53,880 bases of DNA. Source: a virus. Taxonomy: Duplodnaviria; Heunggongvirae; Uroviricota; Caudoviricetes. Under the pieces are notes generated by a model. That model ran no database searches. It saw only the letters and a program-made list of their open reading frames with translations, and was not told the origin of the DNA. Positions 2,061-51,687 of this stretch are shown one piece after another. The position numbers and the translations under genes are program-made. The stretch covers positions 1 to 53,880 of the IMG/VR virus record IMGVR_UViG_2617270943_000003; one strand, written 5' to 3'. Numbering within the stretch: position 1 is the first letter of the stretch; every line of letters begins with the position of its first letter.

Positions 2061-2222
2061 TTACGCCACCGTTACATTGTCAACCTTAATGTAATATTCA
2101 GGGTTGTTTTCTATTTCAGATTTAAACTTAGAAAAACATTCCCGCCATTCATGGGCTTGATTATTGAAGTAGTACACCGTATGGCGTTCTATTTTGTACA
2201 AAATCCCCGTTGATTTAGCCAT
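2061..2222 (-). CDS. Small hypothetical protein (53 aa)
   Basis: ORF MAKSTGILYKIERHTVYYFNNQAHEWRECFSKF... found by manual translation; it fills the gap between two leftward genes and contains the palindrome ATTTTGTACAAAAT. Confidence 0.3.
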   Translation of the reverse strand: MAKSTGILYKIERHTVYYFNNQAHEWRECFSKFKSEIENNPEYYIKVDNVTVA

Positions 2223-2236
2223 GTAATAACTAACCA

Positions 2237-2668
2237 TCATTGCCCCCAGCGTTTTATAAATTCCTCGTTTAATTTCGTATCACCCGACCATTGAACATCA
2301 TGTTCAGCACCGAACGAGTAGATCAATTCGATTAGTTCGCTGAATTCTGATTTACTCATTCGACTTGTAGACGTTCCCAATACAACGAAGCCTGATTTAT
2401 CTAGGTTAGGGACTACGCCATATTTCTTAAGTCCGGCAGTGAATACCGCTTTCCAGTCTTCCGGCGACAGCTTTTTACCGTACCAATTAACCTGATCGCT
2501 AATGTCGGTCAATAGCGCCCAAAGCAACGCATTTTGGCTTAGCGAGCGGGTTTTCTCCTGGATGGTGATTATCAGCGGGCTTTTGCTATCAGGCTGGATC
2601 TCTCTTATCTGCCTGATAGCATTTTCTTTCACGGCGTCGTTGACTATCTCAAATCTAATTTGCCGCAT
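2237..2668 (-). CDS. ninB: NinB / Orf-family recombination protein
   Basis: MRQIRFEIVNDAVKENAIRQI...TIQEKTRSLSQNALLWALLTDISDQVNWYGKKLSPEDWK...VVPNL...FVVLGTSTSRMSKSEF matches lambda NinB nearly position for position; start taken at the internal Met. Confidence 0.85.
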   Translation of the reverse strand: MRQIRFEIVNDAVKENAIRQIREIQPDSKSPLIITIQEKTRSLSQNALLWALLTDISDQVNWYGKKLSPEDWKAVFTAGLKKYGVVPNLDKSGFVVLGTSTSRMSKSEFSELIELIYSFGAEHDVQWSGDTKLNEEFIKRWGQ

Positions 2669-2882
2669 TATTTCTTTTCGCCTTATTTTTCGCTTTGTAT
2701 TCCTGCCAACTTTCCCAGCGCGCATTTATAATTGCATCAAGACTAATCAATTTTGAAGAAGTCATAAAAGCGCCTTTTAAATATTTCATATCAACCGTAA
2801 CAGGTTTATCAGGATCACCGCCGCGCTTGTATTCCGCGATCGTGCTTAAATCCTCCACGGTCAATTCTAAATCCTTGTTCAT
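2655..2882 (-). CDS. Hypothetical protein
   Basis: 75 aa ORF in the leftward operon, small overlap with ninB start. Confidence 0.4.
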   Translation of the reverse strand: MNKDLELTVEDLSTIAEYKRGGDPDKPVTVDMKYLKGAFMTSSKLISLDAIINARWESWQEYKAKNKAKRNNAAN

Positions 2883-2891
2883 AATTCCCCC

Positions 2892-3098
2892 TTACACAAT
2901 CCGCATTGTGTTTCGTAATTCACCGCGCAACGCCCGTAATGCATCGCGCATTGGCACAAAAACCCGGTTAAATTTTACGTGTTTATATTTCCGCATCAGT
3001 GGCGGTGTATACACCTTTGCGTCGTATACTTCCCACGGATAATAAACGCGCGTATCGTCGACAAACGTTTCAACTGAATAAAAGATTACCCGTCTCAT
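2892..3098 (-). CDS. Hypothetical protein
   Basis: 68 aa ORF, stop/start overlap with the upstream gene suggests an operon. Confidence 0.4.
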   Translation of the reverse strand: MRRVIFYSVETFVDDTRVYYPWEVYDAKVYTPPLMRKYKHVKFNRVFVPMRDALRALRGELRNTMRIV

Positions 3099-3652
3099 AA
3101 TTCTAACCCCGTTTCACCGTTAAGTTTTTCGATCTCAAATACTGGTTTATCCGGTAACAGGCCGTTATTTTTCCGGTATTCATTCAGGCGGCTGTCAAAA
3201 TCAAACGCGAGATCATTAGCGTGACCAAAGCGCCCAGGTTTAAACAGTGAGTAAAAGTTAAGGCCGTGTTTATTGGTGTCTATGCAAAGCGTTTCATCAA
3301 GTACCATTAAACGCAGCGTGCGCGACAGGTAATTCCACGGGATACCAGTTTCCGCGCTAATGTCACGCATACGCTTCTTAACGCTGTAGTCACTAAATAA
3401 CGCCGCCACACGATCACGACGTTGTGCATACAAATATTTAATTCGATACCCCAATAATCTGCGGCGCGGTCCGAAATATGTATATACACGCTCGACAATA
3501 CCAGTATCAATCAAGTGTTTAATTGTCTCAGGCAAACATCCGGCTTCGTCATATTCCGCTGATAATCCGGTTTTCTGGCGTAGCTGGTGCATTGTTGCGA
3601 TGCCGTCCAGTTCAAGGATATTGATAACTTTTGTTTCAAGTTCAATGCTCAT
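3095..3652 (-). CDS. Hypothetical protein (possible winged-helix domain)
   Basis: ORF 3095-3688; start placed at MSIELETK (3652), which has GAGG upstream. Confidence 0.45.
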   Translation of the reverse strand: MSIELETKVINILELDGIATMHQLRQKTGLSAEYDEAGCLPETIKHLIDTGIVERVYTYFGPRRRLLGYRIKYLYAQRRDRVAALFSDYSVKKRMRDISAETGIPWNYLSRTLRLMVLDETLCIDTNKHGLNFYSLFKPGRFGHANDLAFDFDSRLNEYRKNNGLLPDKPVFEIEKLNGETGLEL

Positions 3653-3731
3653 TGTTTTTCGCCTCGTTTTAAGCGCGAAAACAGCCACCAGAAAGAGATC
3701 AACTTTCCGGTAAGCCGTTTGCTCAAGTTAA

Positions 3732-5153
3732 TTAAAAGGATGCGTTATTCTGGTTATTTCGTGGGGAGAATCGGCTTGCTGCCGGACGTTGTTGCATTGA
3801 CTGGATGCAGGCGGACGCCGCGCGAGCCTGGTTGCATGGAATGATGTTGCCGTTATCGTCAAACCACTGGTAAACAGTCCCCGTTTTCCCGTGACGGTTT
3901 TTTGAAACGATGATCTCCATGTATTCGCGGGCAACCGATTGTTCGTTGTAGTAGCCGTCGCGGTAGACCATGATGATCCGGTCTGCGTCCTGTTCAAGAT
4001 TACCGGAATCACGCAGATCAGAATTGTTCGGGCGCTTGTTCGGTCGTTCCTCAACGCGGCGGGATAATTGCGCCAGCGCCGCCACTGGCACGCGCAACTC
4101 TTTCGCCATCATTTTCAATGACCACGACAATTGCCCTACGGCGAGATCATGACGTTCGGCCTTAGCCAGCTTCATTAACCCGATGTAGTCAATCATTACC
4201 ATCCCCAGGTTAGGATGGTCCTGTTTCATCCGTTCGACGGTGGCGCGTATTTCCTCGACCGTTAACTGCGATGCGTCAACAATCCACACATCGAGATCGG
4301 CAAGGGCACTCATTCCCTGGGCGACGTGCGCCCAACCTTCGTCATCCAGTTTTACCGGATTACGTAGGCAATCCGTTGATAAGTTCCCAGCGCCAGCGAT
4401 AGCACGTTCAGTCATCTGATCGAGCGACATTTCAAGCGTGAACAGCAAAACGCCGACCCGCTGACCTTCGCCGCCAGGGTATGGACGTTCAGCCGCCGCG
4501 CGGGCAATTGCCAACGCCAACGCCGATTTACCAGACCCCGGACGTCCGGCGATAAGCACCAGATCAGTAGCGTTAATGCCTCCTAACATTTCGTCGAGTG
4601 GGTCAATCCCTGTTTTGATGTTGTCAGAGTTCACGCCACACTCCATGCGTTTACTTAGCACTTCCGTGTACTCCTGTACCGCGTCGCGCAACAGCACCGG
4701 AATAATCTTGTCTTTCGTTACTTTTAATTTTGAATACCGGGAATCAAAATATTTCATCGTCTCCCTGACAGCTTCAAGTGTCCCGGTTTCCAGGTTGTAG
4801 CGTATATCGTCCATCAGTTCCAACATTTGCCGCCGCTGATATTCCTCCTGTAATAGAGCGGCGTACCCCTTAAGGTTGGCAGCAGATGGACACGATCGCG
4901 CCGTTTGCATTAGCGGGACAAAATTTTCGTTACCGATTTCATCACCGACCATCAGAGCGTCAATAAGGTTTCTGTTTCTTGCTTGCGCCCGGATGATCTC
5001 AAACGCTCGTTTATATAGTGGAATGGTGAAGACTTCAGGATCGAGCGTAGCAAGAACATCTTGCGCGTTAGGAGTAAGCCCGCCCAACAGGAGGCCACCT
5101 ATCACGGCCGCTTCCCGTTCCTGGCGTAATGAGTTTATTTGCTCAGTCACCAT
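3732..5153 (-). CDS. Replicative DNA helicase, DnaB family
   Basis: DnaB N-terminal domain (AAVIGGLLLGG...KRAFEI), Walker A GRPGSGKSALALAIA, Walker B VMIDYIGLM, and DnaB C-terminal motifs (SRRVEERPNKRPNNSDLRDSGNLEQDADRIIMVYRD). Confidence 0.9.
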   Translation of the reverse strand: MVTEQINSLRQEREAAVIGGLLLGGLTPNAQDVLATLDPEVFTIPLYKRAFEIIRAQARNRNLIDALMVGDEIGNENFVPLMQTARSCPSAANLKGYAALLQEEYQRRQMLELMDDIRYNLETGTLEAVRETMKYFDSRYSKLKVTKDKIIPVLLRDAVQEYTEVLSKRMECGVNSDNIKTGIDPLDEMLGGINATDLVLIAGRPGSGKSALALAIARAAAERPYPGGEGQRVGVLLFTLEMSLDQMTERAIAGAGNLSTDCLRNPVKLDDEGWAHVAQGMSALADLDVWIVDASQLTVEEIRATVERMKQDHPNLGMVMIDYIGLMKLAKAERHDLAVGQLSWSLKMMAKELRVPVAALAQLSRRVEERPNKRPNNSDLRDSGNLEQDADRIIMVYRDGYYNEQSVAREYMEIIVSKNRHGKTGTVYQWFDDNGNIIPCNQARAASACIQSMQQRPAASRFSPRNNQNNASF

Positions 5154-5171
5154 TATGGTATTGCCTCCTGT

Positions 5172-6290
5172 TTACAAAATGGAATATTCAGGGTAATAAA
5201 CAAAGCGCCCGATCTCCCCGTGATCAGGACTGTAAATTATTACCGCCGCCAGCCGCCGCGACCGCCAGCCGCCATTCGTTGAATAAGCGTCTTTGCCAGC
5301 TAACGTGCCGTGGTACTCAACAACGCCCAACGATGATTCAATCAGCCGTTGGTGATGCCAGTGTCCACAATGAGCGTAAACAGACGACGACTTGCCGAAA
5401 TCCTCCCGCCAGTCAGAAACGCAGGCAGAAAGTAAATTTTCTGGCTTTTTGATAGTGTGCCCGTGGTGGTAAGCAAGAAATGTTTTGCCGTACTGTGTGT
5501 GATGGACGATAGCAGGTGACACATCAACCGTCACACGCGGTTCATCTTCGTAAAAAGCCGCCAGCGCAGCACGTAGCCAGATCATACCTGATTGGTCGTG
5601 ATTACCGGATAATACTTGGATCTCGACATCCTTATGATTTAGTAACATCTTCCCGACCGCACGCCGGACCGACCGGATCGCCACGTAAACAAGTTTTGCG
5701 TAGCGTGAATCACAATCCAAAACGTGATTACTTGATGGCGTCACTGGTAACAGTCCGTCAGTGTGGAGCACATCCCCTCCTAACAGCAAAACAGCTTTTT
5801 CAGACATCGGTGCAGCGCCTACCGCGTAGTCGAAGAAGTCATTTAGCACGCGTTCAGCGATCCCGGTGTCGTAGCTCTCACCGCATTCAGCTTTATGAGC
5901 AAGCGCCCCGATATGCAGATCGAATACCGGATAAAGGGCCAGGCTTTTTTGAAAATCAATTTCCGGCACTGGCACGGCCTCCGCGCGGGGTATTTCTTCC
6001 GTGAAGGCGTCACAAGCAGATTGCATTAGCATTTCCATTTCATCGCGGTCACGGGCTGTTTTAATCCAGCGCATAATCACATTGCCATCCTTATCGACGA
6101 GCAATGACTCAGCATTGACGCCAAAACCCGGTGCGCGGCGCGTGGATATTAAACCGCGTTTCGCCAACCGTGCGCCCAGGCGTTCGACGTTGCGTTTTGC
6201 CATGCCATATTTTTCTGCGATCTGTTTATACGTCAGACCGTTATTATGTTCAGCGATTAACTGTTCATCGCTGATCTTTCTTTGTGACAT
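5172..6290 (-). CDS. HTH domain fused to calcineurin-like metallophosphoesterase
   Basis: N-terminal HTH (LTYKQIAEKYGMAKRNVERLGARLAKRGLI) and metallophosphatase motifs in canonical order: DLH, GGDVLHTD, GNHD, HHGH, GHWHH. Confidence 0.7.
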   Translation of the reverse strand: MSQRKISDEQLIAEHNNGLTYKQIAEKYGMAKRNVERLGARLAKRGLISTRRAPGFGVNAESLLVDKDGNVIMRWIKTARDRDEMEMLMQSACDAFTEEIPRAEAVPVPEIDFQKSLALYPVFDLHIGALAHKAECGESYDTGIAERVLNDFFDYAVGAAPMSEKAVLLLGGDVLHTDGLLPVTPSSNHVLDCDSRYAKLVYVAIRSVRRAVGKMLLNHKDVEIQVLSGNHDQSGMIWLRAALAAFYEDEPRVTVDVSPAIVHHTQYGKTFLAYHHGHTIKKPENLLSACVSDWREDFGKSSSVYAHCGHWHHQRLIESSLGVVEYHGTLAGKDAYSTNGGWRSRRLAAVIIYSPDHGEIGRFVYYPEYSIL

Positions 6291-6451
6291 AACGTTAATT
6301 CCTCCGGTTTACAGAATGTATATTTATTTTCCGTAAAACGCGCTACAACGCAAAAACCCACCGCGTAACCCACTTGTAAGGGTGCAGTGTCTTTTTTGCG
6401 CCAGAAGCGCAATCAGGTGGCTAATTTTCGATTTTTAAGGTAGAAGGGTAG

Positions 6452-6553
6452 TTATGGATTAACTAGTAGATATAAGCCGCCGAACAAGGCGACGTTAACA
6501 GCGATAGCCATCGCGATCGCGAAAGCCAGGGCGAACATGCGTTTACCGTTCAT
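6452..6553 (-). CDS. Putative small hydrophobic peptide (33 aa)
   Basis: MNGKRMFALAFAIAMAIAVNVALFGGLYLLVNP with GAGAGGA Shine-Dalgarno-like sequence upstream; lies in an otherwise ORF-free 350-bp intergenic region. Confidence 0.25.
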   Translation of the reverse strand: MNGKRMFALAFAIAMAIAVNVALFGGLYLLVNP

Positions 6554-6686
6554 AGCTAAATCCTCTCTGAAACGCTCCATAACGAGCTAATCGCAAAAAG
6601 GTAAGCAAGTGTAGCACCCCATGCGATTTAGCTCGCTGGTGAGGTTGTTTTGTGGGTAATTTTGGATTTTTGCGGATCGTAATTGG

Positions 6687-7739
6687 TCAAAGAACGCCAG
6701 CGCGCGTATCACGTAGCGTTTTTGGTTTAAGCAGAAAATCAAGTGTCGCAGTGAAGCCATTGCCGAAGTAAAAATCTGAAGCCGTGTTTTTGAACGTTTC
6801 GAAGTAGGCGACAAAGCCGTTAATGCTTTTGTCTTTCAGGTAGTCAGTGAACGCATAGATCTTGCGTTCAAGATCCCGATCCAGTTCGGCAGGTGGTAAC
6901 AGGCCGTCAAACGTGCTGTTAAATGCTTCCACCACGTCGGCAGCGTTTACAGTAGCTGATAGCTTGCGCCATTGTTCAGCATCAGCCAAATACCCATCAA
7001 ACTTAGTTACCCGGCAAATGTTGATAGGCTTAGGTGTTCCACCACGGCTACGCCATTGCGTTAAAGCCCACTCAATCACTAATGTGATCTCATCCTCCGT
7101 ATACGCTTTACGTGTTTTTGTTTCTGTCAGTAGTTCTACGAATGGCTTAGCATCACGACATTTGCATCCTGCCTTGTCGTTGTAGAAGGCAAGGCAACGC
7201 AATGCCGCTTCGTTTACGCCATCCTGATTGACCATTTTTTGTTCATTTTCGACAATACACGAAGTGTATATATCTTTTTCTCTTTCTTTTTCTACTTCTA
7301 ATTCTAATTCATGACCCTTTCCTGACCCGGTCATGACCCTATCATGACCTTTTTGTGTTGGATTGATTAACTTTTCTAATTTTAATTGCTCCTTCGCTGT
7401 GTTTATGGCGGCCCTGTAAGCGCTTTTAGAAGTCATTGATTGGTCCAGCCTTTTCAATAACTTTAAACAAGTTATGTGGCCTTGAGAACATTCAAACAAA
7501 CCAATTTCGATGAAGTATTTCATCATTTCTTCTATACGTTTTTCAGTAGATCCGACGTTTCGCGCAATTATTCTTGCGTCATGTCGTAGGTCAAAAGTTA
7601 GATTGTGCTGATCTACGTCATAAGTTATTAGTTCTAGGCAATACCAATAAAGCCCGTACCCTTCCAGGCCATAATCTAATAAAACGTTTTGAAGTTTTTC
7701 ATCGCGGTTCGCATCGCTATCATGCTTAAACCACTTCAT
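6687..7739 (-). CDS. Phage replication initiation / replisome organizer protein (DUF4373-like N-terminus)
   Basis: N-terminus MKWFKHDSDANRDEKL...YGLYWYCLEL is characteristic of phage replication organizer proteins; it sits upstream of the DnaB-like helicase in the same operon. Confidence 0.65.
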   Translation of the reverse strand: MKWFKHDSDANRDEKLQNVLLDYGLEGYGLYWYCLELITYDVDQHNLTFDLRHDARIIARNVGSTEKRIEEMMKYFIEIGLFECSQGHITCLKLLKRLDQSMTSKSAYRAAINTAKEQLKLEKLINPTQKGHDRVMTGSGKGHELELEVEKEREKDIYTSCIVENEQKMVNQDGVNEAALRCLAFYNDKAGCKCRDAKPFVELLTETKTRKAYTEDEITLVIEWALTQWRSRGGTPKPINICRVTKFDGYLADAEQWRKLSATVNAADVVEAFNSTFDGLLPPAELDRDLERKIYAFTDYLKDKSINGFVAYFETFKNTASDFYFGNGFTATLDFLLKPKTLRDTRAGVL

Positions 7740-7742
7740 AGA

Positions 7743-7997
7743 TCATTCCTCCGGCAATGCAATGTCATAAATGTCGCCGTATTCGTCAGCGCGTTTAATG
7801 AATCCTTTGCGGATCAATGAATTTAAAGCGTCAACAGTAGTATGCAGTGGCAGTTCGCACACTTTTGCGATCTCTTCGCGTGAAGCATGTGCGCGGCCTT
7901 TGTTGTCTGCCTTTTCTGCAAACGCAATTAAGACAAGTTTTTGGATCGGGCTGTTAAGTTTTACGTTCCATACTTCATTCATCATGTGCATACTCAT
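7743..7997 (-). CDS. Small HTH DNA-binding protein (first gene of leftward operon, Cro-like position)
   Basis: 84 aa, winged-helix-like segment SREEIAKVCELPLHTTVDALNSLIRKGFI; divergent from the repressor gene; AGGAGA Shine-Dalgarno-like sequence upstream. Confidence 0.45.
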   Translation of the reverse strand: MSMHMMNEVWNVKLNSPIQKLVLIAFAEKADNKGRAHASREEIAKVCELPLHTTVDALNSLIRKGFIKRADEYGDIYDIALPEE

Positions 7998-8303
7998 CTT
8001 GTTTTTCTCCTATGGTTAGAGTGAACGCGCGGGCGGGCATCCCATTAGCATTAGATAGCAGTGACTGACCGCTGAACAGATCCCGCCGTTGCGTGATATT
8101 TGTTTTTCGCTTCGCAGCGACACCGGGTTTTTAAAGAGCTTAAGGTATGTGCCTTTTTGTGCCTTCCGTTATCTTTTTCCTTGCGTCTTTGCAAGTATGG
8201 CCTTACCTTGTCTGCAAGTTTACAAAATGGAATTTTAAGATCAAGGCTTAAAATACACGTTTTGTGACTTGCATCAAACTTTTTGAGGTTATAGGGTAGC
8301 GAC

Positions 8304-8951
8304 ATGAAAACAAAATGGTATGACTTAGCAAAGCAGCTCATGCGGGCGCAGGGCATGAGTCAGGATTCACTCGCAGATCTCATGGGGATAACTAAAGGCG
8401 GCCTGTCACACTGGCTTAACGGTCGCCGCGAGCCAAATCTTGAAGATATTGCGCGGATTATGCGGGCGCTTGGGCGTCGTCAGTTCACTGTTACACATGA
8501 TGGTATGGTCATTGATGATTCTGTTTCTAATACACTTCAGGCCGCACCGCCGCGTGATTTAGGTAGTTACCCGGTTATTGACTGGAAGGACACAGTAAAC
8601 AATATGGATGACACAAGGCGATCAGCATTACCACACGTTACGACTAGCGTTATTTGTTCAGATGATAGTTACTGGCTGGTTGCCAAAGGTGAATCAATGA
8701 ACGCGCCGCAGGGGTTGAGCATCCCGGCGGGGACGATGATACTTGTTGACCCGCACGCGCCAGCTATTGACGGCAAACTGGTTATAGCCCAGCTTGAGGA
8801 AGGGCAGATACCGACGTTTAAACAGTTGATTATTGATGGAGGTCAAAGGCTTTTACGTTCGCTCAATCCGCTGTATCCGCCAATCCCTATGAATCCAGAA
8901 TCAAAAATTATAGGCGTGGTGGTTGATGCGAAGATCGTAAACCTGCCATAA
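8304..8951 (+). CDS. cI: CI-like prophage repressor (XRE HTH + LexA/S24 peptidase domain)
   Basis: N-terminal HTH (MSQDSLADLMGITKGGLSHWLNGRREP) and C-terminal S24 autopeptidase motifs (AKGESM, catalytic Lys in VVDAKIV). Confidence 0.9.
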   Translation: MKTKWYDLAKQLMRAQGMSQDSLADLMGITKGGLSHWLNGRREPNLEDIARIMRALGRRQFTVTHDGMVIDDSVSNTLQAAPPRDLGSYPVIDWKDTVNNMDDTRRSALPHVTTSVICSDDSYWLVAKGESMNAPQGLSIPAGTMILVDPHAPAIDGKLVIAQLEEGQIPTFKQLIIDGGQRLLRSLNPLYPPIPMNPESKIIGVVVDAKIVNLP

Positions 8952-8956
8952 ACATT

Positions 8957-8981
8957 AGCCGCCGAATGGCGGCTTTTCTTT
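8957..8981 (+). terminator. Rho-independent terminator after repressor gene
   Basis: Hairpin AGCCGCC-GAAT-GGCGGCT followed by TTTCTTT. Confidence 0.55.
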
Positions 8982-9073
8982 GCCTGGAAAACACCAAAAC
9001 GTAAACAGAAAACGTTATTTATTATTTAAATATCAATGGCATATAAAATATTTTAAAAAAGTATACAAAATGG

Positions 9074-9102
9074 ATTGACTCGGTGTTTTACGGGGCGTAT
9101 AT
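9074..9102 (+). promoter_or_regulatory. Sigma70-like promoter (TTGACT-17bp-TATATT) for the rightward early operon
   Basis: Consensus-like -35 and -10 with 17-bp spacing; flanked by the inverted repeat TTGACTCG/CGAGTCAA (9074-9111) and preceded by GTATACAAAATGG. Confidence 0.4.
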
Positions 9103-9451
9103 TGCGAGTCAAAGGAAGGGCGCAGGTAACAAAAGCAACTTCCTGGCACTTTAAAAATCAGGCTTAACACCTTGTCAACCGTGGAGTAACTCCCCGATGG
9201 GGGACCGAAAGCGGCACTGATAACAAGGCGCATGGGGTGTTTAAAGCGTTACATCCCCCACGAAACCGCACGCAAGGCGACGAGTCAGCTTGCTTGGAGT
9301 GAGCAAGGTCACGCCGGGAACGGCGATGATTGCGGGATTAGTTGAAAGATGTTAAGCCGCTCATTAACAATCTGGTCAGCCGCTGGAAGTGCGGCAATTA
9401 ACGAAGATGATTTTTTATTAAGTGTCATCAAGGATATACGGAGATCAGATT

Positions 9452-13131: not shown

Positions 13132-13188
13132 CCGAGTGATTCCGATCACATAAATATACATTTTGTGTTGTGATCGAATATCCGTTTT

Positions 13189-13449
13189 GTGAGCCAAAAT
13201 CAAAAGGTTTACGGTGCGGAGGAAGCAAAAATGGAACGCGAATTGATGCTTTATTGCGTAGAAGGTGGCGTAGGTCACGATGCCTACGTCGCCGGGAAAG
13301 GCTATCCAGCCGATGAAGTGCTTTCTAATATGCACTTCAGAGAAAATGAAAGCCAGGTGTCTGTGTGGAAACGGTGCGTTGATGGTATTGAAGTTGTAAG
13401 TATCGAACGGTATTTGGGCACGTTTGATTACGGTGTTATTGAGGCTTAA
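13189..13449 (+). CDS. Hypothetical protein
   Basis: 86 aa ORF. Confidence 0.4.
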   Translation: MSQNQKVYGAEEAKMERELMLYCVEGGVGHDAYVAGKGYPADEVLSNMHFRENESQVSVWKRCVDGIEVVSIERYLGTFDYGVIEA

Positions 13450-16677: not shown

Positions 16678-16699
16678 AGTTTACAAAATGGCGTCATTG

Positions 16700-16715: not shown

Positions 16716-16836
16716 TAATGGCGCTTTGCACCTTGTTAGCACGTATCCATTTTGTATACTTCAAGCAAACAAAATGCTCTTTAAAAATCCGGCAGCGCTG
16801 AAATGCGTAGAAATCACCTGAAAAGGAGAGAGCATT

Positions 16837-22559: not shown

Positions 22560-22644
22560 ATCACAAAGTATACAAAATGGCATTGTTCAGGCAGTGCCGT
22601 TTTGTTATATGTAAGCCACGGAAAGACGGAGGGGAGGCAAGAAA

Positions 22645-23715: not shown

Positions 23716-23953
23716 GGTATACAAAATCAGGTGTAAAGGCGAATACCCTGGCTTTACGATTGGTTGCGAATATATGGGCCGCATTGGGTACGGCCCTTTC
23801 GGTGAATTAGGGATGAATACGCTGGACGACGACGGCGACAGCAGGACGCTTGATCTCGATTCTGATGATTTCGAATACATCCCGCCAGTAACTTGCCGCG
23901 TAGTTGATGAGTTCCTGGCTGAACATGAAGACGATGAGGATGATTATGATTGA
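23699..23953 (+). CDS. Hypothetical acidic protein
   Basis: 84 aa ORF with non-ATG (TTG) start and AAGGGGGA upstream; acidic C-terminus. Confidence 0.35.
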   Translation: MSASNKVYKIRCKGEYPGFTIGCEYMGRIGYGPFGELGMNTLDDDGDSRTLDLDSDDFEYIPPVTCRVVDEFLAEHEDDEDDYD

Positions 23954-38806: not shown

Positions 38807-38986
38807 AACCCACCACGCTTAGTTTTTATTTTTAAGTGATTTTAACATTTCTTCAATGAAATCCGCATAGCGTTCATGTTCGTTGGGACGGTAGTTTACG
38901 TTTTTCATTTTCTTGTCCTCTTTTGCTTCCTCCGGTTCATCCGGTCCTTTTAAATCCCTTTACTCTATCCATTTCCTTTAGCCTCT

Positions 38987-39028
38987 TTATACAAAATGTA
39001 TTCGTTGAAGTGAAGCCATTTTGTATAA
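38987..39028. repeat. Perfect 12-bp inverted repeat TTATACAAAATG-N18-CATTTTGTATAA in the divergent promoter region
   Basis: Read directly from the sequence; lies between the minus-strand lipoprotein gene and the tape measure gene. Confidence 0.8.
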
Positions 39029-39066
39029 AATAGAGACATAGATCACATCTTGTATGAGGTTAAATC

Positions 39067-42115: not shown

Positions 42116-42134
42116 AGCTCACCCCCGATTATCC

Positions 42135-42290: not shown

Positions 42291-42458
42291 TTTGGGCCTC
42301 CTTCGTTGGTACTGCTTTTCTTCTTGCTTTCTATATACATCTTGTTGCGTACTATGTGAAGCCATTTTGTAAACTAGCTATAATCATTGTGATGAAGATC
42401 TCATTTTTCGCGTAGAAGCGCGTAAAGATATATACAAAATGTAACTTATGGGGGTTTT

Positions 42459-43009: not shown

Positions 43010-43015
43010 ACACGA

Positions 43016-43246: not shown

Positions 43247-43450
43247 TTAAGGTAACTCCACTTCGTTAAATGTAACAAGCACCCCTTGATTTTCTTTATT
43301 TATAATTATGAAGGCATTAATTGAAGGCAGACATCTTTCCACGCGGTAAACGTCACCAATATCTAAACTGTAATATTCTGTTAATTCTCTATTGTTCCCT
43401 TTAGCAAAACCCGTAAACCTAACCATTCCTTGACCGTCGTACTTTAACAT
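43247..43450 (-). CDS. Hypothetical protein (accessory cassette C)
   Basis: 67 aa opposite-strand ORF. Confidence 0.4.
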   Translation of the reverse strand: MLKYDGQGMVRFTGFAKGNNRELTEYYSLDIGDVYRVERCLPSINAFIIINKENQGVLVTFNEVELP

Positions 43451-43458
43451 ATACAGTC

Positions 43459-43707
43459 CTATAGGTTATCACGCAGATAATTAACGCCCTTATCAGTGAC
43501 GAATGAATGATTAACCTGGTTTTCATCCGTCATGATGATGAATAACTTTTCCTGTAGGTATTTCGCTTTCGGGTACAGCGTTAAACAGACCTGGTACAGT
43601 ATCCCGCGCTCAATCAGCAAATCAATAAATTCGTGCTCATGATAACCGACGAGGCGGGCGGCCTGTTTCAACGTGTACACATAATCGCCGTGATTGCGCC
43701 ACGCCAT
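43459..43707 (-). CDS. Hypothetical protein, possible HTH (accessory cassette C)
   Basis: 82 aa; segment YTLKQAARLVGYHEHEFIDLLIERGILY resembles a helix-turn-helix. Confidence 0.4.
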   Translation of the reverse strand: MAWRNHGDYVYTLKQAARLVGYHEHEFIDLLIERGILYQVCLTLYPKAKYLQEKLFIIMTDENQVNHSFVTDKGVNYLRDNL

Positions 43708-43716
43708 TTTGCCGCC

Positions 43717-44064
43717 TTATTTATCGAATACTGAAAGGTTATCGATGCAGAAATCTTTTGCCGCTTTTTCGTATTCGCGTTTTGCTTCAGGATCATCTGC
43801 CGGGAAACCGTGCGCGTGTATTTCGCCAGGGCAAGACTGGTCCATAGAATCTGCATAATAAGCAGCGAAGCTACCATTAATATCTTTCGGGTTCATATCT
43901 TCCACCTCATCAACTATCTGTACCGGATTAGCAGCATATTTCACTGGATGGCCTAAACTACATTCAAGAATCCTGCCTTCTTCCAGGGCTACTTCTTCGC
44001 TATCAAATAATCCGAAACACTCCTTGCTACCACTTATCCACACATCAAGACTGTATTTTTGCAT
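43717..44064 (-). CDS. Hypothetical acidic protein (accessory cassette C)
   Basis: 115 aa opposite-strand ORF. Confidence 0.45.
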   Translation of the reverse strand: MQKYSLDVWISGSKECFGLFDSEEVALEEGRILECSLGHPVKYAANPVQIVDEVEDMNPKDINGSFAAYYADSMDQSCPGEIHAHGFPADDPEAKREYEKAAKDFCIDNLSVFDK

Positions 44065-44234
44065 TTTTTGTTAACCTCATTTTTCACAGGTTCGATCCTA
44101 TATCCCAAAACGCGGTCATCCTCAGCAAGTTCAAGCGCATCAATCAGTGCCTCACCCTCATCATCATACAGAGCGATAACCTTTTCCCTTCCGCCTGTCA
44201 GGAATACCGTCAACTTCCACACCTTATCACCCAT
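44034..44234 (-). CDS. Hypothetical protein (accessory cassette C, first gene)
   Basis: Start at MGDKVWKL with GGAGGTG upstream; the track ORF extends upstream to 44354. Confidence 0.4.
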   Translation of the reverse strand: MGDKVWKLTVFLTGGREKVIALYDDEGEALIDALELAEDDRVLGYRIEPVKNEVNKKCKNTVLMCG

Positions 44235-44363
44235 TTCACACCTCCGCGCCATTTTGTTAACTATGCTTCCGTTTGAGTAAAATATACATATTGTAAAAAC
44301 CGCGATCAATCCATTTTGGCATGATTTGGCGTGACACAGATCACAAAATGACAAGGTGAGAAA

Positions 44364-49200: not shown

Positions 49201-51230
49201 GCATTGATAACGTGATTGTCAGTGAAAAAGAAGCAAGAGCGGAGGCAATGGAGACAATTACCGCCGAAATCGACACGATGGATAAAAACATCAAAGGTGA
49301 GATTGCGCGCGTAGATACTGCCATTGCCAATGAGAGCCAGGCAAGGGCTGATGCCATCAGTGAAGTTAGCGCAAACATTGACGCACTTGATAGTAAAACA
49401 GATGCCAGTGTTAATCGTCTTGATCAAGCTATCGCAGATGAGGCCAGCGCACGCGCACAGGCTATCAGCAATGTCAATGCGAGCATGACAAATCTTGATA
49501 ACAAGGTTACAAGCAACGTTTCTAGACTTGATCAGGCAATAGCTGACGAATCAAGCGCAAGAGCAGAAGCCGATGATCAGTTAATAGCAAAAAGCGAAAA
49601 ACTTGATGGTGATCTCGCTATGGCAAGGGCAAGCCTACAAAACGCTTCGCTTGCTCTCATCAATAATACATTGTCTCAGACAAAGACAAGGCGCACTCTC
49701 ACAGCGGAGTTCAAACGCGGACAAAGTGAAACTAAAGCACAAATTGACCGTATTGATAATGTCATTACTGACGAAAAACAGGCAACAGCGGAAGCGTTTG
49801 AAACTATCACAGCAGAAATGAACACGATGGACTCAAACATTAAAGGAGAAATATCACGATTAGATAAAGTGATCGCGACTGAAACGCAAGCAAGATCTGA
49901 AGCTATAAGTAGTGTTAATGCAAGCATAAAGACGCTAGAAAGCGACACTGAAGCCAGCGTTAACCGTCTTGATCAGGCAGTTGCTGACGAGGCCAGCGCC
50001 CGCGCACAAGCTATCAGCGGAGTAAATGCAAGCATCAGCACGCTTGATAGCAAGGTTACAAGCAATGTGACCCGTATCGACAAAGCTATTGCAGATGAGA
50101 CGCAGGCCCGCACAGACGCAATAAGCAACCTTAACTCATCGCTTACCAGTACGATTAATTCGAAAGTATCTGAAGTATCAACAGCACTTTCTACGCATGA
50201 AGCATCAAGCGCGGAAAAATTCAGCCAGATCTCAGCGTCTTTCGAAGCTGTAAACTCAAGCATCACGGAATGGTCGCAGACCATGACAACTGCGGACGAG
50301 GCATTATCAACCAAAATTGATCAGCTTACAGTAACAGTTAACGGGAACACCACGGCGATCGAGACAACATCTAAAGCGTTAACCGACTTCAAAGGTAATG
50401 TTGATGCGTCATGGTCAATCAAGATTGCCACCGACAACAACGGCAGAAAATACGCAACAGGTATGTCGCTTGGCCTGACTGGTAGCGGGACTAACGTTCA
50501 ATCGCAGTGTATTTTCCTCGTTGACCGCTTCGTGTTAATGACTGCGGCAAACGGAACATATCAGACGCCTTTCTATGTTACTAATGGTGCAATGTATGTG
50601 CGCGAAGCGTTTATTAAAGACGCATCAATAGGAACGGCTAAAATTGCAGATGCAGCCATTACTATGGCTAAAATTGTTAATGAAATAAAATCATCAAACT
50701 ATGTTGCTGGTTCTAAAGGTTGGAGGATAACACAAAGCGGATCATCAGAATTTAACGATGTTGTGGTAAGGGGCGAAATCCATGCTAATAGCGGTAAATT
50801 CAAAGGAACTGTAGAAGCTACATCCTTTGTTGGTGATGTCGCATCTACTAACGTTATACCGCAATCATCATTCCCTGGGACAAGTACAAGCGGATCTCGA
50901 TCTGTTACGAAGACGTATAAAGATTCATCATCAAGCTCGCTTTCGAAAACAGTTTTCGTAATGATTCCTTACCATCTTACTTATTATACTTATTCAGGAT
51001 CATCAACAATAAAAGTAACAATTAATATTAATGGCAATAGCAAAACATATAACGTAGTAAGGGCGGCATCATCGCCTCAATTCGGATTTACGGTATCACA
51101 TTGCGTAACTGGGATTACTGCTCAAACAGTTACGATAAAAATAACAGAGGAATACACCAACACCGGAACATCAGCAGAAAGAAGGCCAGGTCTTGCACTT
51201 GTTACAAGAAGCTCAGGATCATGGTCATAA
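46290..51230 (+). CDS. J: Host specificity / central tail fibre protein J
   Basis: N-terminal ~1000 aa collinear with lambda J (FYRVLDILSEGPIYGPVN...YHLRGLIVDVPDNYNP...AFGCTSRGQAYRAGKWLIET); the C-terminal part contains extended coiled-coil repeats. ATG at 46290 with AGGAGAAAAAG upstream. Confidence 0.9.
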   Translation: MSSGGGKAKTPTLLNDNLYHKQFYRVLDILSEGPIYGPVNQTAPLNSVMLNDTPVTDTNGNTSIPGISIAWRNGTVDQSPINGFNAIESTVIVNAQVTRDTPIIRTVSDPNVTRVRLNVGVDALVQSDDQGNQYNTSVMLMVDVKPSSSSTWTLVKDITIGPGKQSGEYLEAHIINAPDEKPFDIRVRRITADSNSDLLRNDTRWSSYSEIIDDNLSYPHTAVAGAVIDHDQYTDTPTRAYHLRGLIVDVPDNYNPEARTYSGLWLGGFKKAYTNNPAWLFRYLIKNERFGLARQAGYIDVDDGALYVLSQYCDQLVDDGYGGLEPRMTLNAYITEQMSARDLLDNIAGMFRGIALWDGQRLTVMIDAPQDPIATITNANVVDGAFTRSSLARAECYNAVIVSWTDPGNGWEQSKEYVSDDELIARDGYNETTLEAFGCTSRGQAYRAGKWLIETAKREPSKFTFKMARDAIHFTPGDIIEILDNNRAGARLGGRIVANNGKVITVDKVDSEYIAAGDTISLLDSDGKFKKHQITGVNGNNITLAAAPAWIRNGTVFAVSTEAAKPVLCRITSVAETENNSVYTIEAAQHDPNKQAVVDEGAVFEINNDTLNHFRVPNIENLKVLNVGSETVQCRATWETQTTTHRLTFEIRVYNADGRVVASYETTNYRYEFYGLDAGSYTLGIRGRNDTGMKGAESIVDLVIGAPAAPIGVNWVPGVFQATVYPISKTTLTTDTAYEFYYSGENQITDPSKVTTSAQFTGRGYQWTFGGMNTGHTYYVYVRTRNAFGVSDFVEASGKPTENFDEISDYVTKDVINSEQFKGMIGDIKDLGDRADLIESATDDLKTATDDLKTATDNLTNITNGLRTDTDDLIAETGSIKVDTDTLKKDTEDLYKKVQESADEIGKHEVRIDSLEVSSENVGNELAQTKASLQNASLALINNSLAQTNTRRTLTAQIKNVDSETKAQIDRIDNVIVSEKEARAEAMETITAEIDTMDKNIKGEIARVDTAIANESQARADAISEVSANIDALDSKTDASVNRLDQAIADEASARAQAISNVNASMTNLDNKVTSNVSRLDQAIADESSARAEADDQLIAKSEKLDGDLAMARASLQNASLALINNTLSQTKTRRTLTAEFKRGQSETKAQIDRIDNVITDEKQATAEAFETITAEMNTMDSNIKGEISRLDKVIATETQARSEAISSVNASIKTLESDTEASVNRLDQAVADEASARAQAISGVNASISTLDSKVTSNVTRIDKAIADETQARTDAISNLNSSLTSTINSKVSEVSTALSTHEASSAEKFSQISASFEAVNSSITEWSQTMTTADEALSTKIDQLTVTVNGNTTAIETTSKALTDFKGNVDASWSIKIATDNNGRKYATGMSLGLTGSGTNVQSQCIFLVDRFVLMTAANGTYQTPFYVTNGAMYVREAFIKDASIGTAKIADAAITMAKIVNEIKSSNYVAGSKGWRITQSGSSEFNDVVVRGEIHANSGKFKGTVEATSFVGDVASTNVIPQSSFPGTSTSGSRSVTKTYKDSSSSSLSKTVFVMIPYHLTYYTYSGSSTIKVTININGNSKTYNVVRAASSPQFGFTVSHCVTGITAQTVTIKITEEYTNTGTSAERRPGLALVTRSSGSWS
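49082..50110 (+). repeat. Intragenic tandem duplication (~549-bp period) within J
   Basis: Two diverged copies starting AAGCCTACAAAACGC at 49082 and 49631, encoding repeated NASLQNASLALINN...AQIDRIDNVI...ARA.AIS.VNAS blocks. Confidence 0.7.
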
Positions 51231-51237
51231 AAAATAA

Positions 51238-51262
51238 CCCCGCTTCGCGCGGGGTTTTCTTT
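51238..51262. terminator. Bidirectional rho-independent terminator between J and the convergent lipoprotein gene
   Basis: CCCCGC-TTCGC-GCGGGG hairpin with A-run upstream and T-run downstream. Confidence 0.65.
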
Positions 51263-51510
51263 TAGTAGTTAGCTACACAATTCGACGGGCTACCTATGCG
51301 GCGCATGTTGTGATCGAGTTCATGACACCATTGACCAGTATACGGAAGTTTTTCAGTGTCATAGACGAGATGACCGTCAGCATCATAGACAATTTCTTGT
51401 GGGATTACTCCGCTATTTGGCAGGTTATGCAATGCAGCTTCTTTATCAACAGCGCAACCAGTAAGAGCAACAGCCGCAGCGAATAAGACCACTTTGAACA
51501 TGTTTTTCAT
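51262..51510 (-). CDS. Small lipoprotein, Cor-like candidate
   Basis: Signal peptide with lipobox AVALTGC; 82 aa; opposite-strand gene between J and the tail fibre gene, the usual place for cor. Confidence 0.4.
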   Translation of the reverse strand: MKNMFKVVLFAAAVALTGCAVDKEAALHNLPNSGVIPQEIVYDADGHLVYDTEKLPYTGQWCHELDHNMRRIGSPSNCVANY

Positions 51511-51687
51511 TTTTTAATCCTCATTCTTGTTAGCTCGTCCGGTTCATCCGGTGGTTTAAATATCCGACAAAACCACATTTCGTATATTGACATAAATCAA
51601 TAAATACATTTTGTATGCGTCAAAAATGTAACACAGATCACAAAATGGTAGAATTATTCCGTTAATTAACATAATGGAGTCATTGCG

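Follow-up and report, generated by a model that had tools for sequence, protein, structure and literature searches.

A recurrent 13-bp element in a prophage of the mEpimmI group is probably a dispersed operator of its CI-like repressor

The window analysed here, a stretch of 53,880 nucleotides, is a prophage of the mEpimmI group of temperate coliphages, related to mEp021. An earlier note had described a short element recurring at its module junctions, which raises the question of whether this is a shared cis-regulatory site or a conserved junction of a mosaic genome. The recurrence is real: TACAAAATGG occurs in eight exact copies on the two strands against 0.17 expected from shuffles, none of 100 shuffles reaching eight, and 23 matches with at most one mismatch compare with 5.5 expected. 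It is the window's most over-represented word, coming top at k = 8-12, and ACAAAATG, ACAAAATGG, CCATTTTGTA and CATTTTGTATA rank first in an order-3 Markov word scan at k = 8 to 11. The element is a 13-bp pseudo-palindrome, WTACAAAATGKAW, with about 15 strong and about 10 weaker copies in about 13 intergenic regions. Its mostly intergenic placement is likewise confirmed, since 24 of 25 copies fall in the gaps of a crude gene map, and non-coding sequence makes up at most 14% of the window.

The positions first proposed hold to within 2-4 nt. Exact copies lie in direct orientation at 5173, 8221, 9064, 16682 and 22571 and inverted at 16747, 39016 and 42362, and at 38990 and 42433 the direct copies take the form of the TACAAAATGT variant. 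The remaining sites are present in altered form: 44343 reads CACAAAATGA, 51639 reads CACAAAATGG, the variant placed at 23717 is GTATACAAAATCAGG at about 23719-23731, and the inverted sites read AACAAAATGG at 44249, only CCAAAATGG at 44311, and TACAAAATGT at 51606. The perfect palindrome reported at 2191-2204 exists and lies inside a coding sequence; its relation to the motif is uncertain. Our scan added copies at 6309, 9743, 13156 and 13180, and weak ones at 8255, 9088, 22595, 42335 and 44284. The features are collected in Table 1.

Table 1. Predicted operators and associated features of the window
Feature	Position	Strand	Details
Perfect palindrome ATTTTGTACAAAAT	2191..2204	.	Outside the 13-bp operator register
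Single operator TTACAAAATGGAA, within leftward early operon	5172..5184	+	Overlaps stop codon of 372-aa ORF; helicase start 19 nt downstream; conserved in 43 loci
Variant operator TTACAGAATGTAT	6309..6321	+	Just upstream (minus strand) of ribosome-binding site of 372-aa ORF
Operator TTACAAAATGGAA, proximal for leftward early promoter PL	8220..8232	+	Also overlaps weak -35 region of presumed cI promoter
PL		-	-35 TTGATC 8244->8239; -10 TAAACT 8222->8217; nutL boxA downstream, about 8127-8141
Degenerate inverted copy TCACAAAACGTGT	8255..8267	-	35 bp centre-to-centre from 8220-8232; part of 27-nt imperfect inverted repeat, 8213-8273
Rep, CI-like repressor (HTH_3 + Peptidase_S24)	8304..8951	+	Candidate motif binder
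Operator ATACAAAATGGAT, distal for PR	9063..9075	+	Abuts -35 TTGACT (9075-9080)
Weak proximal operator of PR, TTACGGGGCGTAT	9088..9100	+	Family arms matched 7/8; overlaps first 3 nt of -10 TATATT (9098-9103); 25 bp from distal copy
Single operator ATACAAAATGTAA	9742..9754	+	Between N-like gp17 gene and next small ORF, 7 nt before its Shine-Dalgarno sequence; conserved in 43 loci
Operator pair ACACAAAATGTAT (13156-13168) and TCACAAAACGGAT (13180-13192)	13156..13192	-	24 bp apart; proximal copy overlaps leftward -10-like TATATT, antisense to rightward early operon
Operator TTACAAAATGGCG	16681..16693	+	Right after cytosine methyltransferase stop, upstream of long hairpin (predicted terminator t4 in mEp021)
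Internal promoter-like site TTGTTA-16-TATACT	16733..16760	+	Listed independently by promoter scan; operator ATACAAAATGGAT (16745-16757, minus strand) fills spacer and first 3 nt of -10; followed by nutR2 boxA, 16776-16790 (PMC11893012)
Operator ATACAAAATGGCA (22570-22582) and degenerate inverted TAACAAAACGGCA (22595-22607, -)	22570..22610	+	25 bp apart; bracket TTGTTC (22583-22588); -10 TTATAT (22605-22610); cassette rare among relatives
Weak variant ATACAAAATCAGG	23719..23731	+	Gene boundary
Two-fold symmetric divergent promoter pair with two operators in common	38986..39029	.	ATACAAAATGTAT (38989-39001) and ATACAAAATGGCT (39014-39026, minus strand); leftward TTCACT-17-TATAAA into island 1 (38147-38806), rightward TTCGTT-17-TATAAA toward tape-measure gene; conserved in relatives
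Leftward promoter of island 2	42332..42372	-	Distal operator TTACAAAATGGCT (42360-42372); -35 TTCACA (42355-42360); first gene start about 42290 (PHROG match)
Island 2 promoter, proximal part		-	Degenerate operator CAACAAGATGTAT (42335-42347); -10 TATATA (42332-42337)
Single operator ATACAAAATGTAA	42432..42444	+	15 nt before minor tail gene start codon (42459)
Island 3 / tail gene L junction	44247..44353	.	Leftward promoter TTGATC-17-TATATT (44309->44281); distal TGCCAAAATGGAT (44309-44321), proximal TTACAATATGTAT (44284-44296); extra copy TAACAAAATGGCG (44247-44259) 5 nt before Shine-Dalgarno sequence; rightward-facing variant TCACAAAATGACA (44341-44353) overlaps CRP-like site
Island 4 (lipoprotein gene) / tail-fibre junction	51604..51650	.	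Two operators, 34 bp apart: perfect palindromic ATACATTTTGTAT (51604-51616) and TCACAAAATGGTA (51638-51650), the latter overlapping CRP-like site

The copies stand in a fixed relation to promoter hexamers. At nine sigma-70-like promoters, which include PL, PR, the internal one before nutR2 and those of three reverse-strand islands in the tail region, a copy that we call proximal occupies the spacer and reaches 3 nt into the -10, in constant register, and at six of the nine a second, distal copy lies 24-25 bp upstream so that the pair brackets the -35. Within 80 bp on either side of a site, +25 is the sole offset enriched for a second one (5/18 sites against a background of 0.5%), and two of the motif-bearing promoters were recovered independently by a consensus scan. 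At PR, the distal copy (9064-9073) abuts the -35 of the region's best promoter match, as previously described; in 33 unique relatives the block AAAAAGTATACAAAATG does not vary, in contrast to its flanks and spacer, and the proximal site of relatives reads TTAC or TCAC followed by N5-GTAT. The copies of the 13156-13192 pair are both nearer the consensus in relatives.

The protein best placed to bind the element is Rep, a homologue of lambda CI that includes the C-terminal cooperativity and cleavage domain (Pfam HTH_3, 5e-13; Peptidase_S24, 4e-19; lambda repressor 3bdn, 1e-19) and is >91% identical across 43 IMG/VR relatives. Expression of the mEp021 Rep orthologue from a plasmid confers immunity (PMC11893012). 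The motif is enriched in all relatives with the same repressor recognition helix: a PWM trained on the window's own sites, with a threshold of 15 bits, gives 15 matches in the window, 14 in mEp021, 12 in mEp010 (50 kb) and only three in 831 kb of other phages having a common tail gene, and no exact copy occurs in 831 kb of other coliphage-type loci. Prophages of Citrobacter, Enterobacter and Serratia and from metagenomes encode CI proteins 38-51% identical to Rep, with recognition helices of the form ITKG/ITQG...HWLN. Between cI and cro they have three ATAC-N5-GTAT sites, with spacings of exactly 33 and 26 bp in four of the five prophages, and downstream of cI there are two or three others. 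The density of such sites is 8.7 per kb in these regions against 0.44 per kb elsewhere, and AATAATACAAAATGG is found verbatim in one of the gaps. A further phage with an mEpimmI-like backbone (L176/L177), whose CI is only 55% identical overall and has an identical recognition helix (ITKGGLSHWLNGRREPN), retains the motif: 20.6 kb contain 12 strong sites, its cI-cro gap has variants resembling the motif, and an antirepressor (ANT) promoter bears two copies. Since the same site type occupies the cI-cro gaps of prophages with 43-55% identical CI repressors, the motif appears to be the operator type of this CI family, and WTACAAAATGKAW is most likely the mEpimmI version of ATAC-N5-GTAT. From these sequence comparisons, we consider it probable that the motif is the operator of Rep, one of the binders that the earlier note had put forward. 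Its broader proposal of a shared cis-regulatory site is borne out by the fixed register and by the CI-family operator type. What is unusual is that the predicted operators extend beyond the immunity region to ~20 promoter-associated places throughout the genome, in both early operons and at four tail-region junctions.

By analogy with lambda OR1-OR2, which lie 24 bp apart and show C-terminal-domain cooperativity, two Rep dimers may bind the proximal and distal copies cooperatively and occlude RNA polymerase. In a lysogen, Rep would then silence PL, PR and the internal promoter before nutR2, together with the head promoters of the reverse-strand islands of the tail region, and single copies just upstream of ribosome-binding sites within operons might act as roadblocks or auxiliary looping sites. 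We infer Rep binding, its cooperativity, promoter activity and repression at every site. Some observations count against a Rep operator: the commonest form, TACAAAATGG, breaks the dyad because GGA replaces GTA, the 8221 copy reads TACAGAATGG in about half of unique relatives, and pair spacings of 34, 35, 64 and 72 bp also occur. Others bear on repression in particular. The strong PR copy lies upstream of the -35 with its centre near -43, and the weak copy on the -10 has a GGGGC centre; the former arrangement is the one in which lambda CI activates PRM. The island lipoprotein belongs to a family tied to superinfection exclusion in the mEpimmI paper and is expected to be on in lysogens, so activation fits better there than repression. 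Several copies are single and lie in 5' untranslated regions, where the mechanism cannot be promoter occlusion.

A different phage regulator, either a Cro analogue that we have not recognised or the 84-aa HTH_36 protein that had also been suggested, could bind the sites instead of or besides Rep, which we regard as unlikely. Lambdoid operators are normally common to two proteins, as with Cro in lambda; no classical cro is evident between cI and the leftward operon in mEpimmI genomes, and L176 and lambdoid relatives have one beside the same sites. The 84-aa protein, whose gene comes first in the leftward operon, is of the winged-helix type (HTH_36, 2e-07). However, the loci L047-L049 encode both a classical Cro and an 84-aa homologue, so the 84-aa protein is probably not Cro, and in lambdoid-type prophages with the same operator type in the cI-cro gap (L178, L181, L182) no HTH_36 gene was called in the neighbourhood of cI and cro. 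Moreover, even where backbones are unrelated, the type of site goes with the CI recognition helix, and a check of ~30 early ORFs found no DNA-binding domain beyond those of Rep and the 84-aa protein.

It is improbable that the motif is instead a promoter element for host RNA polymerase, its identity reflecting the copying of one promoter cassette. It would then serve as a UP-like A-tract at -46 to -38 and, when reversed, as spacer plus -10 (CCATTTTG-TAWACT). The A-tract does occupy the position of the proximal UP subsite in five promoters and agrees at seven of nine positions with the UP consensus, AAAAAARNR; the reversed copy supplies the TA of the -10 at nine sites, and the copy at 51638-51650 places TGG before TAGAAT, resembling an extended -10. 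Yet recognition by alpha-CTD and sigma needs no invariant 13-mer, and C3 and G9 are invariant in 21 site families whereas the -35, spacer and -10 differ. Many copies also lack promoter hexamers in register, the motif is missing from other coliphage loci, and the site type fills classical operator positions elsewhere.

The other half of the original question, a conserved junction of a mosaic genome, is weakly supported, since most homology break points lie elsewhere. Of 828 HSP ends from the comparison with 76 related loci, only 51 were no more than 40 bp from a copy, where about 25 (3%) would be expected, and 6/13 operator-bearing gaps were break-point hot spots against 9/42 gaps without an operator. 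The largest cluster of break points (74 ends) adjoins the 6309 copy, mEp021 and mEp010 have an HNH gene inserted next to the 5172 copy, and extra cassettes in relatives come with extra copies. The proportion of hot spots among operator-bearing gaps is expected if exchangeable cassettes carry repressor-controlled promoters, and it gives no reason to regard the 13-mer itself as a recombination substrate. A module-boundary linker that promotes cassette exchange between related phages is very improbable: few HSP ends are near copies, the strongest other hot spots (37800, 41840, 49560) have none, 13 bp is short for homologous exchange, the register with the -10 and -35 and the 25-bp pairing would go unexplained, and other phages have the same sites in operator regions that are not mosaic.

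We find it harder still to credit that the inverted pairs act as RNA hairpins, either bidirectional terminators (A-tract plus U-tract) or processing sites. Three of the five inverted pairs do make stable hairpins that fold better than shuffles (22566-22612, -21.1 kcal/mol, z = -5.8, with a 19-bp hairpin formed by the 22570/22595 pair; 38985-39030, z = -5.6; 16678-16760, z = -4.75), and the mEp021 annotation places a terminator between the homologues of 16681 and 16745. But any inverted operator pair makes a stem by construction, the pairs at 51600 and 42356 show no folding advantage over shuffles, most copies are unpaired, and copies can point either way with respect to transcription (5172 and 16745 against 9742). 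A site for host CRP, IHF, Fis or OmpR is least likely of all, as the motif is unlike their known consensus sites, has no exact copy in the other coliphage-type loci and tracks the phage CI family, and the CRP-like palindromes that adjoin or overlap several copies are a separate element co-occurring with it, which also speaks against CRP, another candidate binder of the earlier note. The dependence of this phage group on host Nus factors (PMC11893012) is a further point on the side of a host protein.

Taken as Rep operators, the sites resemble OR1-3 and OL1-3 of lambda and their equivalents in 434 and P22 in having a repressor with HTH and S24 domains, a short dyad-symmetric site, copies that overlap the -10 and -35 of the early promoters flanking cI, neighbouring copies ~24-25 bp apart, suited to pairwise cooperativity, and one copy overlapping the weak -35 region of the presumed cI promoter. 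In contrast to lambda, where CI at OR2 lies near -42 of PRM, the copy at the cI promoter is centred near -35; the 13-bp site has a fixed AAAAT centre and is mostly asymmetric (TGG replaces TGT); cI is flanked by PL and PR and has the same reading direction as PR, with no cro evident; and, above all, about 20 further copies lie outside the immunity region.

Dispersed repressor sites are also represented by the conserved inverted repeats of phiC31, the SPbeta element bound by MrpR and the CB sites of N15 outside immB. As here, a master repressor would control many scattered promoters through a repeated site, although the repressor families and hosts differ, and to our knowledge none of these involves an S24 CI-type repressor of an enterobacterial siphovirus. 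In their distribution, the sites are like the stoperators of cluster A mycobacteriophages (L5 gp71, Bxb1, TipsytheTRex), 13-bp repressor sites found at about twenty short intergenic places throughout the genome, including late genes, and common to all homoimmune relatives (PMC9283540, PMC6550527). Stoperators lack symmetry, their repressor is a monomer with two domains, and they keep one orientation relative to transcription (PMC9283540, PMC6550527), whereas the present sites are pseudo-palindromic, are predicted to bind a lambda-CI-like repressor and occur in both orientations, and most of them are locked into promoter hexamers rather than free-standing.

A word scan under an order-3 Markov model (k = 8 to 11) ranked ACAAAATG (23 occurrences versus 3.2 expected), ACAAAATGG, CCATTTTGTA and CATTTTGTATA at the top, and TACAAAATGG is present as eight exact copies across both strands of the 53,880-bp window, compared with 0.17 expected from dinucleotide-preserving shuffles (23 matches versus 5.5 expected when one mismatch is allowed). 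The recurrent element that the earlier note had picked out by eye, and had placed mostly between genes at module junctions, is therefore enriched well above the shuffle expectation, and the coordinates assigned to its copies are right to a few bases. The "variant" at 23717 reads GTATACAAAATCAGG; the copy listed at 44311 is present, but merely as CCAAAATGG, and the palindrome reported at 2191-2204 exists but lies within coding sequence. Additional copies were found at 6309, 9743, 13156 and 13180, with weak ones at 8255, 9088, 22595, 42335 and 44284. Alignment of 21 independent site families, drawn from the window and 76 related loci, gave the PWM and the consensus gTWTACAAAATGKa, in which information is limited to ~13-14 bp. 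Across these families the A, C, AAAA, T and G positions are close to invariant, and position 10 is G in 13 families and T in 6. The dyad is TACA/TGKA and the commonest form (GG) is imperfect; the T form, ATACAAAATGTAT, has the palindromic arms ATAC-N5-GTAT, of which two perfect examples occur among the copies, at 38989 and 51604.

By a crude gene map the window is no more than 14% non-coding gaps, yet these contain 24 of the 25 copies, which bears out the intergenic placement first noticed. Twelve of the 15 strong sites fall outside the immunity region (7998-9421). Relative to the local operon the motif is antisense at 5172, 6309, 13156 and 16745 and sense at 9742, 16681 and 22570, and this occurrence in both orientations to transcription argues for a function at the level of DNA rather than RNA. 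Two lower-scoring motif-like sites, TTACAAAATGAAA (1213-1225) and TTAAAAAATGGAA (1312-1324), lie at the overlap of the integrase and excisionase-like genes and are kept in 14-17 relatives. Both may match by chance within coding sequence, or they may serve in the control of int/xis.

The window shares 85-92% identity across most of its length with the temperate coliphages mEp010, mEp021, mEp044, mEp554 and MagusPhagus, and matching prophages are present in 57 complete E. coli genomes. These mEpimmI phages are non-lambdoid, Nus-dependent and form one immunity group, were reportedly as common as lambdoid phages in one human-faeces collection, and derive immunity from the orthologue of Rep, the lambda-CI-like repressor of the window (PMC11893012). 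All 43 IMG/VR loci encoding a Rep at least 91% identical have 2-5 motif copies per 10 kb. The core TACAAAATGK occurs 113 times in 525 kb from 30 tail-region loci of relatives, whereas no copy was found in 831 kb from 50 loci of other phages that share only a homologous minor-tail gene. PWM sites of at least 15 bits number 15 in the window, 14 in mEp021, 12 in mEp010 (50 kb) and 3 in the 831 kb of controls, counts that serve for comparison only, the matrix having been trained on the window's own sites. At the predicted promoter PR the block AAAAAGTATACAAAATG is unchanged in 33 unique relatives while the sequence upstream and the promoter spacer vary; the copy at 8221 is less constant, reading TACAGAATGG in about half of the unique relatives. 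The paper describing the mEpimmI group mentions no operators, promoters or this repeat (PMC11893012), and a literature search with the motif strings returned unrelated primers only; the operator sequence of the group appears undescribed in the literature searched.

Rep contains HTH_3 and Peptidase_S24 domains and matches the lambda repressor (3bdn, 1e-19). Although a search of IMG/VR with a CI alignment yielded no further relatives, a search of a large protein collection recovered CI homologues of 38-55% identity in other Enterobacterales, and we compared the DNA around several of them for operator sites. L049, L178 (Citrobacter), L180 (Enterobacter), L181 and L182 (Serratia) are unrelated, classically organised prophages with a divergent cI-cro pair. 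In all five, the cI-cro gap holds three ATAC-N5-GTAT sites, spaced start-to-start by exactly 33 and 26 bp in L049, L180, L181 and L182, and two to three additional sites lie downstream of cI at the other early promoter. Over these loci and the window, counting sites with at most one arm mismatch, density is 8.7 per kb in cI-flanking gaps versus 0.44 per kb elsewhere. The operator region of L178 contains AATAATACAAAATGG verbatim, and the CI recognition helices are closely alike (ITKGGLSHWLNG in Rep; ITKGAVSHWLNA, ITQGGLGHWLNG and VSKGAVGHWMTG in the others). L178 and the compared locus L179 have just two strong sites per 20 kb. A further phage, L176/L177, by comparison, follows the mEpimmI gene order and encodes a CI that is 55% identical overall and has a recognition helix identical to that of Rep; it keeps the motif, with 12 strong sites in 20.6 kb, and motif-like variants that fall below the strict arm filter occupy the cI-cro gap of L176. 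The sequence grammar of the sites and their association with these repressors are direct observations. That the site type appears to track the CI DNA-binding domain across phage backbones, and to fill the canonical operator positions, is our main reason for concluding that the motif is probably the operator of Rep, for which ATACAAAATGTAT and ATACAAAATGGAT are candidate sequences.

L176/L177 also has an inserted antirepressor (ANT) gene whose promoter bears two motif copies, which suggests direct CI control of this gene. In L176, a relative with a heteroimmune CTD, these copies are 39 bp apart in the ANT/pRha promoter region (L176:8546-8610). A classical cro is present between cI and the leftward operon in L176/L177 and in all lambdoid-type relatives, and is not seen at that place in mEpimmI genomes (7998-8303 versus L176:9649-9876). 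The want of an obvious cro in the mEpimmI group, together with the position of the gene for an 84-aa HTH_36 protein as the first leftward gene, leaves room for another regulator, such as this protein, to share or own the sites. We regard this as unlikely, given that L047-L049, three of the related loci, encode both a protein of this type and a classical Cro, and that no HTH_36 gene was called next to cI and cro in L178, L181 or L182. No additional DNA-binding domain came up when ~37 ORFs from the early region and the islands were scanned with Pfam and PHROG.

Promoters were predicted by consensus, and the corresponding predicted transcription starts fall near 8210 (-), 9110 (+), 16767 (+), 38979 (-), 39036 (+), 42325 (-) and 44274 (-). 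The best sigma-70 match near cI, TTGACT-17-TATATT at 9075-9103, is taken as PR and is followed by the nutR1 boxA at 9146; a distal motif copy (9063-9075) abuts its predicted -35. Set against promoter hexamers, the copies follow a strict grammar: nine promoter-like sites have their spacer filled by a proximal copy, with its last three bases forming the first three of the -10 hexamer, the weak proximal copies at 9088, 42335 and 22595 being recognised in part through this position. The internal promoter at 16733-16760 was independently recovered by the consensus scan. Six of these nine also have a distal copy, which is placed 25 bp upstream (24 bp at 13180) and spans about -49 to -37, so that the pair brackets the -35. 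When family arms were scored at each offset within +/-80 bp of 18 anchor sites, +25 was the sole offset with at least three good partners (5/18, two of the five being the reciprocal pair 38989/39014, versus a per-position background of 0.5%). Other partner spacings are 35 bp at PL and 64 bp at the nutR2 promoter.

Genes, islands, predicted promoters and associated sites in the window (gene layout assigned by homology with mEp021)
Feature	Position	Strand or direction	Detail
Integrase	1-1236
Leftward early operon	1194-7997	leftward
Rep, CI-like repressor	8304-8951	+
Rightward early operon	from 9422	rightward	N-like gp17 gene first
Q gene	18216
Lysis, head and tail genes	after Q
Reverse-strand islands among tail genes (n = 4)	37817-38806, 41441-42290, 43247-44233, 51262-51510	-
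Bidirectional intrinsic terminators ending tail-region islands	37783-37799, 41414-41436, 43014-43034, 51236-51256
PL, then nutL: proximal copy	8220-8232		-10 TAAACT, 8222→8217
PR: weak proximal copy TTACGGGGCGTAT	9088-9100		-10 TATATT, 9098-9103
Internal promoter TTGTTA-16-TATACT, 16733-16760: proximal copy	16745-16757		-10 TATACT, 16755-16760
Promoter 22583-22610: proximal copy	22595-22607		-10 TTATAT, 22605-22610
Leftward site at 13156: proximal copy	13156-13168	leftward	-10 TATATT
Symmetric pair, leftward promoter: proximal copy	38989-39001	leftward	-10 TATAAA, 38991→38986
Symmetric pair, rightward promoter: proximal copy	39014-39026	rightward	-10 TATAAA, 39024-39029
Island 2 promoter: proximal copy	42335-42347		-10 TATATA, 42337→42332
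Island 3 promoter: proximal copy	44284-44296		-10 TATATT, 44286→44281
CRP-like palindromes at motif copies	8263-8278, 13135-13150, 16700-16715, 22550-22565, 42388-42403, 44330-44345, 51627-51642

The nutR2 boxA, GCTCTTTAAAAATCC at 16776, lies ~15 nt downstream of the internal promoter (region 16733-16810), in the same way as nutL is preceded by PL and nutR1 by PR. This parallel suggests that the third nut site reported for the mEpimmI group belongs to a third early transcription unit, whose own predicted promoter would be repressor-controlled. Palindromes resembling CRP sites (TGTGA-N6-TCACA, at most one mismatch) occur nine times versus 1.7 expected, and seven of them adjoin or overlap motif copies. 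Their centres lie ~-60 to -70 from the predicted starts of PL, the nutR2 promoter, the promoter at 22583 and the island 2 and 3 promoters, a placement resembling that of class I CRP sites. In the operator variant TCACAAAATG at 44341 and 51638, the left arm is at the same time the TCACA half-site.

A reading of the motif as a pure promoter element, whose A-tract acts in the manner of an UP element and whose reverse copy gives bases of the -10, draws on the same architecture: the A-tract stands at the place of the proximal UP subsite at five promoters, and the reverse copy does supply the TA of the -10. We nevertheless consider it improbable: UP elements, A/T-rich stretches at -38 to -59 of sigma-70 promoters, are recognised degenerately, the C and G positions are invariant beyond what such an element needs, many copies have no hexamers in register, and the motif is specific to the phage group. 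The forward motif as a -35 (TTTACA) or -10 (CAAAAT) was discarded on inspection, partner hexamers being absent at the right spacing. A Q-binding element or late promoter was likewise rejected, since neither the Q gene nor the best pair of late promoter and terminator (24249-24575) has a copy close by. This pair, the best candidate for the Q-dependent promoter and its terminator, sits just ahead of the lysis genes and consists of TTAAGA-16-TAAAAT at 24249-24276 and a GC-rich hairpin with a T-tract at 24557-24575.

All four reverse-strand islands have a bidirectional terminator at the left and a motif-bearing gap at the right. The terminator stems at 43014 and 51236 are almost identical (ACCCCGC...GCGGGGT), and with a terminator at every island end the islands look like cassettes with standard ends. 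In mEp021 and mEp010 a gene for an HNH homing endonuclease is inserted precisely between the helicase gene and the upstream ORF, adjoining the operator at 5172 (5154-5184; L001:6045-6583, a related locus); with or without the insertion, the stop codon of the upstream ORF falls within this motif copy. The earlier proposal that the element marks junctions of a mosaic genome is weakly upheld, as an association: in comparisons with 76 related loci, 51 of the 828 internal HSP ends were no more than 40 bp from a copy, about two-fold more than the approximately 25 (3%) expected, and on the fuller site list break-point hot spots occur in 6 of 13 operator-bearing gaps versus 9 of 42 other gaps. The largest cluster (74 HSP ends, 6291-6451) lies beside the variant copy at 6309, between a 372-aa ORF and the replication-initiator gene. 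However, strong hot spots at ~37800, 41840 and 49560 have no copy, which argues against a causal role, and the association is what exchangeable cassettes that start or end at repressor-controlled promoters would give. We consider it very improbable that the motif is a mosaic-junction linker as such.

We give even less credence to a role of the inverted pairs at the RNA level, as hairpins or terminators: of five pairs, three fold much better than shuffles, but the other two fold no better, most copies are unpaired, and a stem arises by construction from any inverted operator pair. A host-factor site is the least credible reading, the motif being absent from other coliphage-type loci, and to our knowledge it fits no consensus for IHF, Fis, TyrR, the LacI family or OmpR. 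A start-codon role for the motif's ATG was also rejected: in most copies it opens a frame of just 2-4 codons, and for the ORF at 42365 a PHROG match sets the true start 75 nt downstream.

For the motif as Rep operator, we infer from sequence that Rep binds the sites, and does so cooperatively, that the predicted promoters are active, and which sign the regulation has. Two Rep dimers, cooperating through the lambda-like C-terminal domain, would occupy the two copies of a distal-proximal pair and occlude the promoter. In the lysogen, Rep would shut PL and PR as well as the promoter next to nutR2 and those of the islands, and self-cleavage of Rep through its S24 domain upon the SOS response would release all of these together. 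The remaining single copies (5172, 6309, 9742, 16681, 23719, 42432 and 44247) directly precede ribosome-binding sites or stand at the ends of genes, and could act as roadblocks or looping anchors; those at 5172, 9742, 42432 and 44247 are the candidates for stopping elongating RNA polymerase in the manner of stoperators. Lambda CI activates PRM from a site centred at about -42. A lipoprotein gene family found on one reverse-strand island has been linked to superinfection exclusion (PMC11893012). Because a lone strong copy near -42 reproduces the PRM-activating geometry, and because of this exclusion-type gene, some island promoters may be activated rather than repressed by Rep. A wider scheme, tentative and on balance doubtful, has Rep as a genome-wide dual regulator that represses bracketed promoters, activates island genes from lone strong copies at the -35 and blocks elongation from single copies ahead of ribosome-binding sites. 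If it held, lysogenic-conversion functions such as the exclusion lipoprotein would be directly repressor-dependent, and the elongation block would mean that, in E. coli, a CI protein of the lambda type works by a stoperator-like mechanism.

The analysis provides an operator sequence, the family consensus ATAC-N5-GTAT, a map of about 25 candidate sites and predicted promoters for PL, PR, the third early promoter ahead of nutR2 and the accessory islands, and the motif is a simple sequence signature for homoimmune prophages of the mEpimmI group. Should Rep occupy all sites, a lambda-type CI regulon would extend into the tail-gene region, and the immunity control of accessory cassettes inserted against late transcription would be explained. 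Repressor regulons that reach the tail genes are best known so far from mycobacteriophages.

By the available tests, the motif appears to belong with the CI/Cro operators of lambda-like immunity systems: it is a short dyad site (~13-14 bp, where 13-18 bp is typical of the class) that overlaps the predicted early promoters flanking cI, is adjacent to an HTH and S24 repressor gene, and recurs as the same site type beside homologous repressors. The 25-bp pairing is close to the 24-bp spacing of lambda OR1-OR2, the OR spacings within the CI family itself being 26 and 33 bp. Lambda-type operators are, however, classically confined to the immunity region, whereas the sites in the window are not, being spread across the genome and into the tail-gene region. 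In being numerous and scattered genome-wide through short intergenic spaces, they are like the stoperators described for cluster A mycobacteriophages (PMC9283540, PMC6550527). Stoperators, in contrast, keep one orientation relative to transcription, and are asymmetric and bound by a monomeric repressor; position 10 breaks the symmetry in most copies of the window, but the consensus of the family is a dyad and Rep has a lambda-type dimerisation domain. We therefore do not class the motif with stoperators, since it occurs in both orientations and nothing indicates a monomeric repressor. Among enterobacterial phages it is unusual for a lambda-type CI operator to be dispersed genome-wide, with the tail-gene region included.
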